This document shows positions 7,898 through 14,431 of a stretch of DNA of 32,307 nt, one piece after another. Within the stretch, counting starts at the first letter, position 1. The number at the start of each line of letters is the position of its first letter. The notes beneath the pieces are model-generated. The model ran no database searches and was not told where the DNA came from. It saw nothing but the letters and a program-made list of their open reading frames with translations. The position numbers and the translations under genes are program-made. This stretch comes from a virus (Duplodnaviria; Heunggongvirae; Uroviricota; Caudoviricetes), in IMG/VR virus record IMGVR_UViG_2711768067_000015; one strand, written 5' to 3'.

Positions 7898-7925
7898 ATT
7901 ATAATTACGAGTGATTAATCAACAA
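7898..7925 (-). promoter_or_regulatory. Candidate sigma70 promoter for the 79-aa gene
   Basis: On the minus strand: TTGTTG (-35), a 16-nt spacer, then TATAAT (-10), ending about 36 nt upstream of the ATG at 7861. Confidence 0.4.
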
Positions 7926-8256
7926 TCTTTTTGCATGGAAAGGAACCGATGATTTTCGGCGCATCCATGCTGTTCTGCAGCAGTTGGACATTCAGGAATC
8001 GCGTTTCGGTACCAGGGCGACGAATGTATTCAAAGCCGTAGTTGTTACCGTCTTTGGCAGGCATAAGCCCCATGTCTACTTTCAAACCATTGGTACCCAG
8101 TTCGGTGATTTTTTGAGAGGTAACTCTTTCACCGTTGATTGTCGATAACTCGCCCTGGTTTGCAACCATAGTGTAGCCACCGCATTTAACCGTGAAGCCA
8201 TCCGCCCACGCGCTGCACGCAGAAAAGACAGCTAACAGAAAAATAATACCCCTCAT
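7915..8256 (-). CDS. Secreted or lipoprotein-type small protein (113 aa) of unknown function
   Basis: N-terminal signal peptide MRGIIFLLAVFSACSAWA with an AWA/DG signal peptidase I motif (or possible FSAC lipobox). Two Cys in the mature part. Starts 4 nt after the upstream 353-aa gene. Confidence 0.65.
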   Translation of the reverse strand: MRGIIFLLAVFSACSAWADGFTVKCGGYTMVANQGELSTINGERVTSQKITELGTNGLKVDMGLMPAKDGNNYGFEYIRRPGTETRFLNVQLLQNSMDAPKIIGSFPCKKIVD

Positions 8257-8259
8257 TGC

Positions 8260-9321
8260 TCATCCCCTTTGCAAAGCCGATTGCGTATACAGATCCGCCG
8301 CGCCACGCGCTTCGCACATCATATCCATGTACCACGCCTGGCCTCTTGTATCGCCACTGTACATAATCCCGCGCACAATATAAACGCCATCCGTTGCGAT
8401 GCTGGCAGGCTGCGATGTGGTGCCGCTGAGCGTGATATTTCCGTCCGTGTTCTGGTCGGTGATCTGACCACCAGCCATCGCAATATCGTTGTTCGACAAC
8501 GCGGTACGATAGACGGAAGCCTGATCCAGCTGAATGAGCCCGTTAACCCGGATGTTCGGATTAATAAGAGCGCGGACGTTTACGCCGTTGCCGATGGTCT
8601 GCTGCGGCATGCCAATAAGCCCGGTAGCACTGTTGAGCACAATCGCTTCGTGAACATATTCATTAGTCGCCACCATCTGGCGCTGACCGTCCACGAATTG
8701 CCATGTTGCGCCACATTGCCCGGCTACATTATCCATAAGATGCCGCGTCATGCCAAAGAGTACCCGCCCCCGGGGGAATACAGTAGCAGGCATTTCAGGC
8801 GTCAGGCCTTCGGTCGCGCCTTTGTCTTCGAAGTCTTTCATCAGCGCACGGTTCACATCAGCGACTGTGTAACCGGCAGCCAGCGTCTGTGAGGTTATAC
8901 TGGTGGCAAAAGCCAGATCTGTATCGGCTGCCTGAATCAGGACGTAGGAATCAACCGGACTGTCTTTTCCTGTGACCGAGTAGCGAATTTCACCGCTGAA
9001 AATCAGTCCGTAGTTGCGGCCATCACTCTGGCCCACGTCCGCCGCATCAACCTCCCGCACGATCCCGACGTCGCTTGCCGACACCTCCGGCGCGATACCG
9101 TCGTAACCCGCCATCAGACGCACTTTCGAAAACTCCTGTCCGGTAATTCGGTTCACAGTATCTGCCGAGAGGTTATAAATTTTGATAGTCCCTACCCGGG
9201 ACGCGCTGCTGATGTTGAACCAGTCGATCGTAAAGGTGACTTTGAAATCACTTAGCTCAATTCCCTGACCGTTCCCGTCCACAAGCTGCAGCTCGAAATG
9301 TCTCATCCAGTTCTGTGACAT
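8260..9321 (-). CDS. Tail/baseplate protein (353 aa), possibly hub-like
   Basis: Long ORF in the tail gene string between tape measure and the baseplate genes. Function inferred from position only. Confidence 0.6.
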   Translation of the reverse strand: MSQNWMRHFELQLVDGNGQGIELSDFKVTFTIDWFNISSASRVGTIKIYNLSADTVNRITGQEFSKVRLMAGYDGIAPEVSASDVGIVREVDAADVGQSDGRNYGLIFSGEIRYSVTGKDSPVDSYVLIQAADTDLAFATSITSQTLAAGYTVADVNRALMKDFEDKGATEGLTPEMPATVFPRGRVLFGMTRHLMDNVAGQCGATWQFVDGQRQMVATNEYVHEAIVLNSATGLIGMPQQTIGNGVNVRALINPNIRVNGLIQLDQASVYRTALSNNDIAMAGGQITDQNTDGNITLSGTTSQPASIATDGVYIVRGIMYSGDTRGQAWYMDMMCEARGAADLYTQSALQRG

Positions 9322-9629: not shown

Positions 9630-10213
9630 CCGCCCCCCAGTAATGACGCCACGTTACCCGTGATGCTTTTCAGCAGTGAAGTATCTGGAGGCTTTGTGGT
9701 TTTGTTGCCGCTATTCTGTACCGCCGACGTGCTGGCCCCTTCCTTCATGTTGGTTTTATCCGCGACGGTAATCTGCTGTGTCAGGGAGATAAGGACCTCC
9801 CTCAGGGTGAGGACGGCGGACAGGACGTTTTCGGTTGTCTTGTCCGTCGTCACTTCCAGCGCCCGGATCAACATGTTGCTGTACAGCCGTTTACCGGTTA
9901 CCACATCGAAGGGGATACGACTTTCCTGCAGATCCAGTAGCTCCTGATACGTCTGCTGAGGACTCAGGCCGAGCAGGCTGGTAGCCGTCAGGTTACTGGC
10001 AAAATCCAGCAATGCGCCGCCACCGGCGAAACCAACCTCCATCACCACTTCTGACGGTTTTTTATAGGCATGATCAGCGACAGCGGCCCCGACCTCTACC
10101 GGATGCTCTGTTATTTCAAGCATATCTGTATGCTTCTCTGAAATAACAACACTGGGAACAATCATTCCTATTTTTCTGCTCTGCTGATGAAAAAGTGTAG
10201 AGAGAATATCCAC
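9626..10213 (-). CDS. Tail protein (195 aa) immediately downstream of tape measure
   Basis: ORF with start/stop overlap to neighbours. Function inferred from position only. Confidence 0.6.
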   Translation of the reverse strand: MDILSTLFHQQSRKIGMIVPSVVISEKHTDMLEITEHPVEVGAAVADHAYKKPSEVVMEVGFAGGGALLDFASNLTATSLLGLSPQQTYQELLDLQESRIPFDVVTGKRLYSNMLIRALEVTTDKTTENVLSAVLTLREVLISLTQQITVADKTNMKEGASTSAVQNSGNKTTKPPDTSLLKSITGNVASLLGGG

Positions 10214-12201
10214 TAACCCACCCTCACCTGATTACTTCGCATGACCTGAGCATTTGCAGACTGTTGCCGACGTGCAACCTCATTACCGACAGCGTGCGGA
10301 TCTCCGCCACCGTAAATGTGGTAAGTATTTTGCTGGTTAACCTCTGTCACTTTGCCACTAATTCCTGCCACGGCAGCCTTATTAATCAGCTCTCGGGAAT
10401 AGATATTTCTTCCATTTTCATGCTGGATAATACTGCTCATCAATGCTGACATGGTTTGCGGATCGCTCATATTCAGGGCAGCCCGGGGATCCACTCCCAG
10501 TCGTTGCGATACAGCCCTGATATACGCAGTTGTGTTGTTATTATCAGACGCAGGTGCCCAGGTAGAGATAATTTTCTCCACACTGTTTATTCCCCGTCCG
10601 GCGTACAGCATTAACTGACGAGCAAGAGCCCGTAATCCATCAAAGGCAGTTTCAAATCTGGCAAATCGCCCGCCCGGGCGTTCAAGAGAAGCCCCTGCCT
10701 GACCAGCAAAATTAAGGTTTCCCGGATTGTTATTCCGTTCTCCTCGTTTCGTAGCCTGTGCATGTTGTTCCGGCTCATCATCACCAAACCAGCTGCGTAC
10801 CGTCCGGCCCACGCTACGGGGATCGAATCCCCAGTGCTCTTTAATCCAGTCGGCAGTACTGTTAGCGCTGTCTGTAACCATCGGCATCGCTGACGGATTT
10901 GCGCTGCCCTGATTAAGTATCTGTTTGCCGATGCTGACGGCATCAGCCCAGCGGCCATCTTTGATAGCGTTGAGCAGGTCGGCGATCATGTTCAGCATTT
11001 TGCTGAATTCGCCCATCTGGTCGATGAAGTTGCTGAAATCCCACTTCAGGGACCATGATTTGGGGTCAATATTGAGTAGTTTCGCCAGCGCTTTCGCCAG
11101 GTCGTTAACGGTCGTTTTAAGGTCACGAACCATCTTCAGCGCGGCATCGACCTCCGGTTTCCACTTGCCCCAGTCAATCAGGCTGTCGCCGCCTTCCTTC
11201 CAGGTCTGATAGTCCTCCCACAGGAGGGCAATACCCGCCGCCAGCGCGGTAATGAGGCCAATCGGCGACATCCAGAACGTACTGTTCAGAATGCGCAGCG
11301 CAATCGTCAGTGCGCCAAACAGCGAGATCAACTCCCGCGTTTGCTTATCCAGCGATTGCCACCAGGTGATGAGGCTTGATGTTCCTTCAATCAGTCTGAA
11401 GAACAGCCGCCCGATAATATCCCCGAGCGCCAGAATGCCTTTTATGGCTTTCGTCAGGGTCTGCTCGATACGAGGGAAGTTGTCCAGGATATGGCGGCGC
11501 AGGGTGTCCAGCGAACCCGCAAGCCCACCCGCAAGATTAGAGCCGATTTTGTCACGGGCCATGCCTGCCATCGCGCCAAACTCACGCAGGGAGGTCATAA
11601 ATTTGTTGGAGCTTCTGGCCGCCTCGTCAGCATTGAAGCCGATAGCTTTCGCCATTGCGCTGTACTGCCCGGAGAAGCCACCCACACCCCGGCGCATCGC
11701 CATAAGGGTATTTTCGTCAATGCCCAGCATCTGCGCATACTGGTTAGCCCGGTAATACGGCATGCCGCTGAGCTTCTGGCCTACACCTGTAAAAATAGCG
11801 GCCATGTCACGCATGTTACCGCTGGCATCCCGTGTCTGTACCCCCAGGCGATTCAGAAATCCCTCTGCCCCGGGATTGATACGAATAAACCGGGAGAGGC
11901 TTTCCAGAGAAGATCGCGCAGCGTCCACGCTGCCGCCAACCTGCGAAACCGCATAGCCAATAGACTGAATTCCCTGGACTGTCGCGCCAGTGCGCTGTGA
12001 CGCCCAGTAAAGATTATCCAGGCCGGAGGCAATCTTAGCCGTAAAGGCCACCACGGACAGTGCAGCTCCTTCAACGGCCAACCCCATTTTGATGACATTT
12101 GCAGTTGTCCCGGCGAGGACAGAACCGAATTTTTTTGCTCCAGCATCATCCACACTGAAGCCAAGCGAGACGAGAAAATCTTTAATAGTTTCAGCGTTCA
12201 T
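10213..12201 (-). CDS. Tail tape measure protein
   Basis: Long, Ala/Gly-rich, predicted helical ORF downstream of the tail chaperone. The ATG at 12201 has a GGAGAGAGG ribosome-binding site; the track start at 12222 is a TTG. Confidence 0.85.
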   Translation of the reverse strand: MNAETIKDFLVSLGFSVDDAGAKKFGSVLAGTTANVIKMGLAVEGAALSVVAFTAKIASGLDNLYWASQRTGATVQGIQSIGYAVSQVGGSVDAARSSLESLSRFIRINPGAEGFLNRLGVQTRDASGNMRDMAAIFTGVGQKLSGMPYYRANQYAQMLGIDENTLMAMRRGVGGFSGQYSAMAKAIGFNADEAARSSNKFMTSLREFGAMAGMARDKIGSNLAGGLAGSLDTLRRHILDNFPRIEQTLTKAIKGILALGDIIGRLFFRLIEGTSSLITWWQSLDKQTRELISLFGALTIALRILNSTFWMSPIGLITALAAGIALLWEDYQTWKEGGDSLIDWGKWKPEVDAALKMVRDLKTTVNDLAKALAKLLNIDPKSWSLKWDFSNFIDQMGEFSKMLNMIADLLNAIKDGRWADAVSIGKQILNQGSANPSAMPMVTDSANSTADWIKEHWGFDPRSVGRTVRSWFGDDEPEQHAQATKRGERNNNPGNLNFAGQAGASLERPGGRFARFETAFDGLRALARQLMLYAGRGINSVEKIISTWAPASDNNNTTAYIRAVSQRLGVDPRAALNMSDPQTMSALMSSIIQHENGRNIYSRELINKAAVAGISGKVTEVNQQNTYHIYGGGDPHAVGNEVARRQQSANAQVMRSNQVRVG

Positions 12202-12378
12202 TATCCTCTCTCCATTTCTCAATGCGCCGCTGGTTATCCGCTTTTACCGCCAGATGGTCATTCAAGAGAGCAATATCGTACAAATCGACAGAGCCATCTT
12301 TAAGTGCTGTATAAGGAATTAACCCGGCGTCAACCGGATTGAGAAGGTAGGACAGCCCGTCCGGCAGGCTGTTAAACG

Positions 12379-12831
12379 TCAGCCCTGTTGCAGGCTCTGC
12401 GTCGTGCTGGTAAGGGATGTAGGCAAAAAATTTCCCAGCGAATTGGCGACCACCCGCGCCACCAGATGAAGCATGACCAGCAGGTCAATATCATCAAACA
12501 TCAGTTCGCCCTGGGTAAATACCGGCACCCATCCGTCCATATGACGCCGCGATACCACCGCAAGACAGGGATGAATAATCGCATCGGTGTCATCTTCGGT
12601 CAGGGAAGACAGTTCCTCAGCGATACGCGGGAGCATGGTTTCAAACACCGGTTTTAACTGCTCGAATTTCACGGTGTCGATTTTGCCATCAGCAGGCAAA
12701 CGGGAGCGAATGCTCCCGAAATCTGACATCATTCCCGCCAGCACCGGCAGAAGTTTGCGGGTCACTTTCAGCTGGTCAAAAACGCTGAGTTTTGCCACGC
12801 GATATTTCACGCCTTTAATTTCGAATTCCAT
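12379..12831 (-). CDS. Tail assembly chaperone (G-like), with a candidate -1 frameshift extension to 12191
   Basis: 150-aa ORF between the tube and tape measure genes. A slippery heptamer and an open -1 frame run up to the tape measure start (see findings). Confidence 0.75.
   Translation of the reverse strand: MEFEIKGVKYRVAKLSVFDQLKVTRKLLPVLAGMMSDFGSIRSRLPADGKIDTVKFEQLKPVFETMLPRIAEELSSLTEDDTDAIIHPCLAVVSRRHMDGWVPVFTQGELMFDDIDLLVMLHLVARVVANSLGNFLPTSLTSTTQSLQQG
12424..12430 (-). other. Candidate -1 ribosomal frameshift slippery heptamer T_TTT_TTG in the chaperone gene
   Basis: In zero frame the codons read aaT TTT TTG (N F L). The -1 frame downstream is open for 83 codons to a TGA at 12191..12193. 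Confidence 0.45.
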
Positions 12832-12834
12832 GCA

Positions 12835-13275
12835 TTAAAACTCCCCGAGAACCTGGTCAATCTTGCCGCAGTCAAACACCCACGGCATCGTATTACCGGT
12901 TTTAGCGTTGGCGTTATCCGGTTGTTTCTGGAACGCAACACTGCGTGCCGTGATGATGTCGCCGCTGACCTTGTTGCGGATCACGATAACGTTATTCCCC
13001 CATGTGGCAGAAGACTGGCTCTGTGCGTTATACGCCAGCGACAATTTTTTATTTGTCGGTGATGTCTTCAGAAGGTTAACGGTAATTGTCCCGCTTTTAT
13101 CTGCATGAAGACTGTGCATCACTTCGCCATCAGAACCGATGGTCATGGTGTTTTTAGGACCGCCCATCGCAACCACAATCCCCTCTTCAGAACTTGCCGA
13201 ACCGTACCCGAGGTCAATCGAACCGGTCGGCCCGGTCAGCGTCGCAGTGACATCCATAAAAGAATAGGTAGACAT
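12835..13275 (-). CDS. Tail tube protein
   Basis: 146-aa ORF between the sheath-like gene and the chaperone, in the canonical myovirus order sheath-tube-chaperone-tape measure. Confidence 0.65.
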   Translation of the reverse strand: MSTYSFMDVTATLTGPTGSIDLGYGSASSEEGIVVAMGGPKNTMTIGSDGEVMHSLHADKSGTITVNLLKTSPTNKKLSLAYNAQSQSSATWGNNVIVIRNKVSGDIITARSVAFQKQPDNANAKTGNTMPWVFDCGKIDQVLGEF

Positions 13276-13285
13276 TCACTTCCCC

Positions 13286-14431
13286 TTAGCGAACAACGTT
13301 AATCTGTACGTCAGCGTAATGAACCGCGCCTGCAAGTTTTATTGCAGCCTGAATCACCGGAGCCTTACGGGCTTCACGTTCTGATTGTGCCTGTTCATCC
13401 AGCGGCTGGGCGTATACGTAATAACCTTTGGGCAGCGTGTCACCTGATGACAACTGACCAAGGTCGCCCCCGTTCCATACGCCCGGAGCAATCAGTCCAT
13501 TCTGAACGGCCTGATCCAGTGATTTTTCAACATTTGATAACAGTCGGGTAATACCGGCTTCAGTCTGGGGAACTTTCGTGGTGCTGGTATAAAGCAGGTT
13601 ATAAAGGTTGGTCTGCACATAATTCTGTAACCAGTCCAGGCCGTGGCGTTCATCAAAGAAATCGCCGTTAGCCATCACTCCCTGCTGGAGGATAGCTGTA
13701 TCATTCTGGTAGTACACGAACACATTGCAGTTTTTTGCATCAAGTGCCGATGCCTGGCTGACTGTCAGTGTTTCATACCCGACACCCGGCTCCTGCTTAA
13801 ACTTGAGCGTAATCGCGGTATTACTGCCATTGAAATTAACCGTGAATGCCCGGCCAAATGCAGATAACGCAGCGTATTTATTACCCGATGAATACTGAAT
13901 AAAACTGCGTGAATATCCGGCGGTTTTCAGTTTTGATGCCAAATCATCGCTGGATGCAGTCTGCAGGCATTTCTCATCGCTTGTCGTAATCGCCAGAATA
14001 CGGCTTACAGAAGAGGATTCGATCGCCGCAGCCACTTTCAGCCAGTCTGCATCCGGAATATCTTCATCGTCTGCAATCCCCAGCCCATACCATGAAGTAT
14101 AATCAAGCATGGCATTCACAGCCTGCTCCAGCGTCTCATGCGTGGCCTGTTCGCTGTCTCCCTTCGTTTTCACCCAACGACCAACAAAAACCTCCTGAGG
14201 TTTCGGTGATTGTGAGAAAAACACCTGCGCAGCCTTATATTCTGGTGATTCCACGCCAAAATCTTTTCCAATATCTTCCGCGGCAGAATAACGGCGAATG
14301 CGCTCACTTACCGGAATGATTGTGGACGGGCCGAGAATGAGTAATGCACCAAAATTTCGCCCTGATGCTGCACGCGGCGACATGATCACATCAACATTAA
14401 CAACGTTTGATACAGGCAAGCCCTGTGCCAT
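13286..14431 (-). CDS. Tail sheath protein
   Basis: 381-aa ORF immediately upstream of the tube gene. The window also carries baseplate J and spike homologues, indicating a contractile tail. Confidence 0.65.

Follow-up and report, generated by a model that had tools for sequence, protein, structure and literature searches.

In an E. coli myovirus-type prophage that is a relative of SEN34/Brunovirus and the Mulock group, the tail assembly chaperone (TAC) gene very probably undergoes a programmed -1 ribosomal frameshift of the G/GT type, as judged from comparative sequence analysis. This reading is supported because the gene occupies the position typical of a TAC, its -1 frame carries a conserved domain that lacks a start of its own, the slippery heptamer is invariant, an orthologue has been annotated as frameshifted, and distant relatives have the two parts fused in frame. 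The majority of ribosomes would read 12831..12379 and release a 150-aa chaperone, and a minority would slip one base back on G_GGA_AAU_UUU_UUG, with its conserved core U_UUU_UUG at 12430-12424, and read on in the -1 frame to the TGA at 12193-12191, yielding a 213-aa protein in which the chaperone domain is followed by a C-terminal DUF6889 domain. If the lambda gpG/gpGT model applies here, the N-terminal domain common to both forms would coat the tape measure protein (TMP), the domain added in the -1 frame would bring in the tube protein and start tail-tube polymerisation, and neither the short nor the long form would stay in the virion. That the ribosome slips rather than RNA polymerase, how efficiently it does so and which partners are bound is what we infer.

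The chaperone locus and its -1 frame

All coordinates refer to the window, i.e. the whole analysed stretch of 32,307 nucleotides, and the relevant features are as follows.

13286..14431, minus strand: tail sheath-like protein (DUF3383; Pfam E 4.9e-101); the counterpart in phage SEN34 is annotated as tail sheath
12835..13275, minus strand: tail tube protein (KPP10_Orf10 / DUF3277; Pfam E 6.8e-60)
12379..12831, minus strand: TAC, short zero-frame product of 150 aa (Pfam Phage_TAC_15), stop TGA 12381-12379
12424..12436, minus strand: slippery run G_GGA_AAU_UUU_UUG, with three overlapping in-frame X_XXY_YYZ heptamers (G_GGA_AAU, A_AAU_UUU, U_UUU_UUG)
12424..12430, minus strand: core heptamer U_UUU_UUG, the sole part of the run that is invariant across relatives (U_UUU_UUG/U/C)
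12379..12423, minus strand: dual-frame overlap from slip site to zero-frame stop, with selection on the -1 frame and not on the zero frame
12191..12424, minus strand: -1 frame extension, predicted to resume at GCC 12424-12422 after the U_UUU_UUG slip and to end at TGA 12193-12191
12200..12316, minus strand: DUF6889 domain (Pfam PF21829), the proposed T domain, residues 173-211 of the fusion
10213..12201, minus strand: TMP, likely start ATG 12201 with GGAGAGAGGA before it; weak PhageMin_Tail match

The genes follow one another on the minus strand as sheath (14431-13286), tube (13275-12835), TAC (12831-12379), -1 ORF (to 12191) and TMP (from 12201), and this Pfam-assigned order bears out the original prediction, made from the sequence of the window, that the chaperone lies between tail tube and tape measure. 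The chaperone ORF matches Phage_TAC_15 (E 2.3e-30, 106 bits, cut-off 22) and PHROG 1688 'tail assembly chaperone' (E 9e-65). The extension, in turn, contains DUF6889 (E 9e-20, 70.6 bits vs a gathering threshold of 23.9) and matches PHROG 4364 (E 1.9e-23); NCBIfam holds no family for either part. The proposed comparison of the -1 product with T-domain proteins gave no match to lambda Phage_tail_T (Pfam, E <= 0.01), DUF6889 being the sole Pfam match to the extension.

At the site, the zero-frame codons of the minus strand read CTG GGA AAT TTT TTG CCT (LGNFL) and those of the -1 frame GGG AAA TTT TTT GCC. The heptamer that had been proposed in the chaperone frame at 12424..12430 is thus confirmed on the minus strand, 15 codons upstream of the chaperone stop. 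Also as predicted, the -1 frame ends with the TGA at 12191..12193 at the start of the tape measure gene, overlapping the gene that begins at ATG 12201 by 11 nt; both this start and the 11-nt overlap are annotated likewise in relatives. The frame is indeed open, yet its proposed length of 83 codons was slightly high, since counting from the heptamer's first T gives 79 sense codons (81 from GGG, 97 from stop to stop). Similarly, the 157-bp gap that it was said to fill is close to the 156 nt that separate the chaperone gene from a program-called TTG at 12222, but the distance from the chaperone stop (12379) to ATG 12201 is 177 nt.

The predicted long product, complement(join(12191..12424,12424..12831)), has 213 aa and ~24 kDa, with junction peptides ..SLGNFFAYIPYQ.. 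or ..SLGNFLAYIPYQ... In support of the frameshift reading, a T7 variant yields precisely this 213-aa fusion. Here, a junction ..SLGNFFAYIPYQHD.. would correspond to slipping on G_GGA_AAU, on A_AAU_UUU or of the P-site tRNA-Phe alone, and ..SLGNFLAYIPYQHD.. to slipping on U_UUU_UUG. An AlphaFold2 model of the fusion (43-row alignment) reached a pLDDT of 41 and was unusable, and a PDB sequence search with the 213-aa fusion returned no meaningful match.

Conservation of the extension and of the proposed slip site

Our comparative set comprised 140 related loci that have the site, from which we took 34 representative lineages below 93% nucleotide identity. In 136 of the 140 loci a -1 frame of 77-84 codons is kept, ending over the TMP start. 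NG86 estimates of dN/dS in all three frames of the 34 diverged representatives gave, past the zero-frame stop, 0.18-0.20 in the -1 frame vs 1.5-1.7 in the other two frames; within the overlap 12379..12423, the -1 frame has 0.34-0.36 whereas the zero frame has ~1.1. The entropy at the three codon positions of the -1 frame is 0.75/0.57/1.31. By these comparative measures, the extension is a real coding sequence, and the -1 frame is the only one of the three under purifying selection.

These data bear on whether the -1 frame is open by chance, or is the remnant of a once-fused gene that decays after an old frameshift mutation, in either case without recoding. An open frame of this length is not exceedingly rare: the original estimate of about 2 percent agrees with 1.97% of 20,000 mononucleotide shuffles (237 nt) that were stop-free over 79 codons, and a few prophage copies (L100, L116, L128 and L133) look visibly decayed. 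Against this stand the retention of the arrangement in 136/140 loci and in 34 lineages at a dN/dS of ~0.2, and its presence in isolated phages recorded as complete genomes, namely Mulock, SEN34, YP3 and GZ7. We therefore regard chance or decay as having next to no probability, and the comparative data have effectively refuted it. The original prediction had named relatives with a stop in the -1 frame or without the heptamer as grounds for refutation; this check was run and did not refute the frameshift, the exceptions being the few decayed-looking loci and one clade of 35% identity. In that clade (L141-143), the -1 DUF6889 frame is kept, but the site is a U_UUU tetramer only, an observation that counts against the frameshift reading.

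Across the 140 loci having the site, U_UUU_UUN is present without exception (TTTTTTG in 131, TTTTTTT in 8 and TTTTTTC in 1), and the exact 13-mer run recurs in 124. Among the 34 representatives, frozen synonymous positions are confined to the heptamer: its Phe codon is always TTT, the upstream Phe being TTC in 18 and TTT in 16, the preceding codon ends in T in 34/34, and the following codon is TTN in 34/34. The rare Gly codon GGA of the run is found in 30/34. Furthermore, three relatives (L007, L008 and L010) have a -1-frame stop one or two codons ahead of the AAA that leads into the U run in this frame, so the -1 frame opens exactly at the site.

A total of 342 out of 5426 complete E. coli genomes carry the prophage module. 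Outside this group, eight distant clusters (50% identity) carry DUF6889 as the C-terminus of one ORF of ~190-210 aa, and 7/8 of these also match Phage_TAC_15, five of them above the curated cut-off.

An independent small gene, with its own start or read by re-initiation after the chaperone stop, is how the gap ORF appears in several annotations, and short proteins consisting of DUF6889 only are abundant in databases. For this prophage, RefSeq lists a separate 54-aa 'DUF6889 family protein' (12355..12191, CTG start, called by PGAP), and several phage records likewise call a separate CDS. The PGAP CTG codon, however, is GAA or GAG in most relatives, and gene callers begin the small ORF at six or more distinct places. 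Start codons form no conserved column, the frequent ones (17/34 and 27/34) lying inside the conserved region, and one lineage (L130) has no ATG, GTG or TTG in its -1 ORF. In the window, the only such codon of the -1 ORF that gives a listed ORF is TTG 12283, with 30 aa. In addition, a promoter scan found no promoter-like site in the chaperone-TMP gap, purifying selection in the -1 frame starts at the heptamer and hence upstream of every proposed start, and in distant relatives the chaperone ORF continues in frame into the domain. As for re-initiation, a CTG overlaps the chaperone stop in the window (CTGA), but neither the stop position nor the CTG codon is conserved. Altogether, a free-standing gene is very unlikely, and DUF6889 is best read as the C-terminal, T-like domain that Phage_TAC_15 chaperones gain through the -1 frame.

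Stimulatory signals and the probable agent of slippage

Bacterial -1 sites that depend on stimulators (dnaX, IS911, IS3) have a hairpin or pseudoknot 5-9 nt past the heptamer, an SD-like element 10-14 nt before it, or both. A downstream stimulatory structure, which had been suggested for 12380..12420, was looked for by single-sequence folding and RNAalifold and not found: the fold of 12423-12330 was no better than that of shuffles (z -0.48), and RNAalifold on the 34 representatives, in a search for nested (pseudoknot-free) structures, gave two invariant pairs and -0.39 kcal/mol. Upstream, RNAalifold on the 75 nt before the site gave -0.01 kcal/mol and no conserved hairpin, and an Rfam scan of 12100-12600 (E <= 1) had no match. 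Two candidates were rejected. The one terminator-like hairpin (12340-12321) is no more than chance would produce, lies within conserved coding sequence and is ~85 nt away from the site; the SD-like GGGUGG is located 16-19 nt upstream, beyond the 10-14 nt range, and does not occur in all lineages.

In one assay with E. coli reporters without stimulators (PMC4066793 Table S3), UUUUUUG shifts at 0.118%, AAAUUUU at 0.070% and GGGAAAU at 0.069%, compared with 0.277% for the lambda heptamer GGGAAAG. The weak values of all three heptamers of the run count against the frameshift reading.

The same values also bear on the possibility that RNA polymerase adds an extra U at U6, so that a minority of mRNAs would carry chaperone and DUF6889 in one frame and be read normally. 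In its favour, what stays invariant is a T6 or T7 homopolymer and not a strong heptamer, UUUUUUG shifts ribosomes only weakly in the E. coli reporters (PMC4066793), and no ribosomal stimulator was found downstream or upstream. Moreover, T7 variants at the DNA level give the same fusion. Bacterial RNA polymerase, however, generally slips productively only on runs of ~8-9 or more A/T, or on shorter ones that directly adjoin a hairpin, and here the run is only T6 (T7 in 8/140 loci), with no conserved upstream hairpin. In every case, the run also keeps the X_XXY_YYZ phasing relative to the zero frame. Furthermore, the additional heptamers G_GGA_AAU and A_AAU_UUU are kept in 124/140 loci and the rare GGA in 30/34 representatives, which counts against polymerase slippage, since these bases matter to the re-pairing of tRNAs and not to the polymerase. 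We thus consider slippage during transcription to be quite unlikely.

More broadly, the sole universal signal is a bare U6-7 that forms a weak heptamer with no detectable stimulator, and therefore either RNA polymerase slippage or an unrecognised stimulator, such as the conserved nascent peptide or the block of conserved nucleotides upstream, might make the long form. We give only a low probability to such recoding other than ordinary, stimulator-free tandem slippage, coupled with some distant relatives that would do without recoding, having nothing but an in-frame long form encoded downstream of the tape-measure gene.

Relation to known systems and consequences for annotation

The ribosomal frameshift proposed here belongs to the conserved TAC frameshifts of long-tailed dsDNA phages, exemplified by lambda gpG/gpGT (Levin et al. 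1993; Xu, Hendrix and Duda 2004, 2013, 2014; summarised in PMC5009743). As in lambda, a pair of overlapping ORFs separates the major tail/tube gene from the tape-measure gene, the -1 ORF lacks an independent start and stops where the tape-measure gene begins, and the G_GGA_AAG of lambda is echoed by G_GGA_AAU at the head of the run. Unlike in lambda, the conserved core is U_UUU_UUN instead of G_GGA_AAG, the tail is contractile, as judged by its sheath and tube genes, and the proteins, of the families Phage_TAC_15 and DUF6889, show no sequence homology to lambda G or T in Pfam (E <= 0.01). Lambda G/GT is not known to have an RNA stimulator either.

A precedent is Klebsiella phage Mulock (MN098327.1), in which CPT_Mulock_014/015 are annotated as 'tape measure chaperone' and 'tape measure chaperone frameshift product', and the CDS of the latter (QFG06717.1) spans 617 nt (3n-1), which fits a -1 join. 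The module is orthologous to ours, with a TAC of 57% amino-acid identity, an identical GGGAAATTTTTTG run, a -1 frame of 81 codons and a tape-measure start overlapped by the same 11 nt. The Mulock annotation is computational, and the genome announcement does not mention the frameshift. Unlike Mulock, the window's own lineage, i.e. E. coli prophages and vB_EcoM-606R2-like phages, carries no frameshift annotation.

A -1 frameshift with an invariant GTTTTT motif has likewise been argued for the TAC-N/TAC-NC proteins of Pakpunavirus/Vandenendeviridae and Andersonviridae (PMC12846349, 2025). The likeness to these myophages extends to a poly-T slippery motif at the 3' end of TAC-N, to an uninterrupted -1 frame through a region usually annotated as hypothetical gene or intergenic, and to a case that also rests on comparative conservation; they differ in phage family, sequence and motif, which is NNT TTT TTN here. 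The site also follows the tandem-slippage heptamer logic of the dnaX, IS911 and IS3 sites of E. coli. Those sites depend on an SD-like element ahead of the heptamer, on a hairpin or pseudoknot after it, or on both, whereas none is conserved here. The A_AAU_UUU class responds strongly to stimulators, reaching 11.4% with the IS3 pseudoknot (PMC4066793).

In summary, this is a new case of the well-known G/GT-type frameshift and leaves the understanding of its mechanism unchanged. Its main value is the correction of database annotation: RefSeq splits the E. coli prophage module into two genes, the second with a CTG start, and DUF6889 is a domain of unknown function, often mislabelled "NTP pyrophosphohydrolase", for which our literature search found no paper using the name. 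Should some distant relatives indeed do without a short form, the lambda rule on the short:long ratio would not hold throughout this chaperone family. Apart from annotation, the module adds a well-sampled family of 34 diverged lineages, in which the slip window is confined to a few codons, to the tail-chaperone frameshifts of contractile-tail phages and offers a natural test case of slippage at a U-rich site that has no obvious stimulator.

A candidate slip site upstream of the tape-measure gene

In this part of the window, where the minus strand carries every gene, the 150-aa ORF at 12831-12379 is, by its profile matches, a tail assembly chaperone, and it lies between tail tube and tape measure as the original prediction had placed it.

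Genes around the chaperone in the window (coordinates, strand, description)
14431-13286, -, DUF3383 sheath-like gene (Pfam)
13275-12835, -, KPP10_Orf10/DUF3277 tube gene (Pfam)
12831-12379, -, tail assembly chaperone, 150 aa (Pfam Phage_TAC_15, E 2.3e-30; PHROG 1688, E 9e-65)
10213-12201, -, tape-measure gene, ATG at 12201 with GGAGAGAGGA just before; start annotated in relatives

Between the chaperone ORF and the tape-measure gene lies a stretch without a listed ORF. The mechanically called tape-measure start, TTG 12222, is probably wrong, as ATG 12201 is the one that matches relatives. RefSeq and several phage records call the tape-measure protein 'lytic transglycosylase' or 'SLT domain'; in Pfam it gave just a sub-threshold PhageMin_Tail match. 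Elsewhere on this strand, a 113-aa ORF (7915-8256, -) with a signal-peptide-like N-terminus (MRGIIFLLAVFSACSAWADG...), directly 3' of a baseplate-hub-like gene (8260-9321), is a possible moron or gene for secreted cargo.

The 3' end of the chaperone reads CTG GGA AAT TTT TTG CCT in the zero frame. The predicted T_TTT_TTG heptamer is thus present in the chaperone frame, at 12430-12424 (-); A_AAT_TTT and G_GGA_AAT are two more heptamers in that frame, on its 5' side. The -1 frame (GGG AAA TTT TTT GCC ...) is stop-free as far as the TGA at 12193-12191, where its stop had been predicted, while its length, 79 sense codons counted from the heptamer's first T (97 codons stop-to-stop), falls short of the claimed 83. 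Its first ATG, GTG or TTG is a TTG at 12283. The proposed overlap of the -1 stop with the tape-measure start amounts to 11 nt at ATG 12201, and the estimated chance of about 2% for such an open frame agrees with 1.97% of 20,000 shuffles lacking a stop.

Coding signature of the -1 frame and constraint on the heptamer

Besides its Phage_TAC_15 match, the conceptual 213-aa fusion hits the Pfam family DUF6889 with E 9e-20 and 70.6 bits (cut-off 23.9) over residues 173-211, and the extension alone matches PHROG 4364. Relatives were drawn from the phage collection (L001-L011), IMG/VR (L013-L092) and GTDB, one genome per species (L093-L147); 140 of the 148 sources held the site with sufficient flanking sequence, and a thinned set comprised 34 representatives with <93% nucleotide identity. 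Entropy at the -1-frame codon positions was 0.75/0.57/1.31 across these 34. Past the zero-frame stop, the -1 frame had a pairwise Nei-Gojobori dN/dS of 0.18-0.20, against 1.5-1.7 for the other two frames; in the dual-coding stretch from the heptamer to that stop, the values were 0.34-0.36 for the -1 frame and ~1.1 for the zero frame. Judged by the domain match and these substitution patterns, the -1 frame is coding sequence, and since it is constrained in the overlap where the zero frame is not, its translation appears to begin at the heptamer and not 3' of the chaperone stop.

Among the 140 loci, the heptamer is TTTTTTG in 131, TTTTTTT in eight and TTTTTTC in one, and the -1 frame extends over 77-84 codons in 136. 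The site Phe is TTT in 34/34 representatives, whereas an invariant Phe 23 codons upstream is TTC in 18 and TTT in 16, and Asp codons likewise show a roughly even synonymous split. The preceding codon always ends in T and the following one is always TTN (34/34 each); where the latter encodes Leu, it is TTG and never CTN, while other Leu positions are mostly CTG. Such fixed synonymous choices are a direct sign of constraint on the heptamer. The rare Gly codon GGA is retained in 30/34. In some lineages the Asn codon is replaced (GGC GAT, GGC GGT, GGT AGT, GGC AGT, GGT GAT), which abolishes G_GGA_AAU and A_AAU_UUU, and NNT TTT TTN is kept throughout; from these codons, the complete triple-heptamer run is favoured, not obligatory. 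Transcriptional slippage at the U6 tract could also join the frames, but it is made less likely by three features: the run is short, it is strictly phased with the codons, and the two extra heptamers have been retained. Furthermore, three phage loci (L007, L008, L010) have a stop in the -1 frame 1 or 2 codons 5' of the -1-frame AAA preceding the U run, so that this frame becomes open right at the slip site; as the zero-frame stop follows 14-19 codons past the site, the shift is tightly bracketed.

Four exceptions look like decaying prophages, with an interrupted chaperone (L100), an indel in the extension (L116), a deletion (L128) or a stop (L133, Arsenophonus endosymbiont). In three 35% identical loci from Pseudomonadota MAGs (L141-L143), the -1 DUF6889-like frame is kept and ends over the tape-measure start, and the homologous place (~1880-1900) reads CCT TTT ATT, with a U_UUU tetramer only and no heptamer. 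Two Flavobacteriia-assigned loci, Elizabethkingia phage EKP1 (L010) and a Chryseobacterium sp. 18061 contig (L104), carry this enterobacterial-type tail module at ~70% identity, and their host assignment or sample purity looks questionable.

A fused product or a separate small gene

In E. coli genomes, RefSeq (PGAP) gives the -1 ORF a gene of its own, with a 54-aa product named 'DUF6889 family protein' (window 12191-12355, -; 2046-2210 in locus L012). Many or older records carry the legacy name 'NTP pyrophosphohydrolase', and the module occurs in 342/5426 complete E. coli genomes. Our observations argue against a separate gene with its own start: the PGAP start is a CTG, replaced by GAA or GAG in most relatives; public gene calls use at least six different starts (43-78 aa); no start codon is conserved in any alignment column, and one lineage has none in the entire ORF; Met is frequent in two columns (17/34 and 27/34), both within the conserved region; and no promoter-like site was found in the gap.

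A fused polypeptide is supported in three ways. In Klebsiella phage Mulock, one orthologue is annotated 'tape measure chaperone' and the other 'tape measure chaperone frameshift product'; the latter's joined CDS spans 617 nt (3n-1), as needed for a -1 join. In rare E. coli T7 variants, either real mutants or homopolymer sequencing errors (cluster P0001, n=16, including E. coli ISC7 CDL28562.1), as in locus L148 (1900-1912), one ORF encodes exactly the predicted 213-aa protein with both Pfam domains. Finally, the extension profile, searched against 1.84 billion cluster representatives, gave 308 matches, mostly short fragments, among them eight distinct 50%-identity clusters of 190-210-aa single-ORF proteins that end in DUF6889 and whose junction is not U-rich; Phage_TAC_15 matched in seven, above the curated cut-off in five.

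In-frame fusion clusters
P0178, P0179, P0181, P0215, P0217, P0235, P0254, P0287: distant, GC-rich relatives, N-terminal part chaperone-like

In locus L149 (473-3133; 60% GC) the junction reads CCG TTC TTC TCC, and the fusion gene follows the tape-measure gene instead of preceding it. Altogether, the Mulock annotation, the T7 variants and the distant in-frame fusions indicate that the fusion is a real polypeptide. A different arrangement is encoded on one Logan contig, where a 212-aa protein (P0076) has DUF977 (PF06163) N-terminal to approximately the last two thirds of this chaperone, probably through rearrangement of a prophage.

Efficiency of the proposed shift and relation to lambda G/GT

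The downstream stimulatory structure suggested at 12380-12420 finds no support: the fold of the 94 nt 3' of the heptamer is no more stable than that of shuffled sequences (z -0.48), and the RNAalifold consensus of the 34 representatives has two invariant pairs and an energy of -0.39 kcal/mol. The consensus fold of the 75 nt upstream reaches -0.01 kcal/mol, and Rfam returned no match. Some 13-35 nt 5' of the U run, the block CTGGTGGCGCGGGTGGTCGCCGA (12445-12467, -; alignment A4 columns 41-63) is almost unchanged, synonymous sites included, among many relatives otherwise 65-70% identical, apart from its end (CAA in the window, CGA in others); no consensus structure is predicted in it.

In an E. 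coli reporter (PMC4066793 Table S3), shifting without a stimulator and with the IS3 pseudoknot was 0.118% and 0.77% for UUUUUUG, 0.070% and 11.4% for AAAUUUU, 0.069% and 1.05% for GGGAAAU, and 0.277% and 43% for the lambda motif GGGAAAG. Hence, the three motifs of the run summed are of about the same order as the lambda motif without stimulator. Lambda makes its two products in a 30:1 ratio (review PMC5009743), and a shift of low-percent efficiency at this run is plausible.

The chaperone frameshift observation is thus confirmed and its interpretation as a programmed -1 frameshift supported. The locus is best read as following the G/GT strategy long known from lambda (Levin 1993; Xu, Hendrix and Duda 2004-2014; summarised in PMC5009743), although the chaperone sequences are unrelated to lambda's and the tail is contractile; a G/GT-type -1 frameshift would here operate in a contractile-tail prophage. 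This frameshift type is well known, and one orthologue is already annotated so; a closely similar comparative argument was made in 2025 for Pakpunavirus-like myophages, with an invariant GTTTTT motif (PMC12846349). As useful by-products, our analysis lets DUF6889 be assigned and the RefSeq gene models be corrected.
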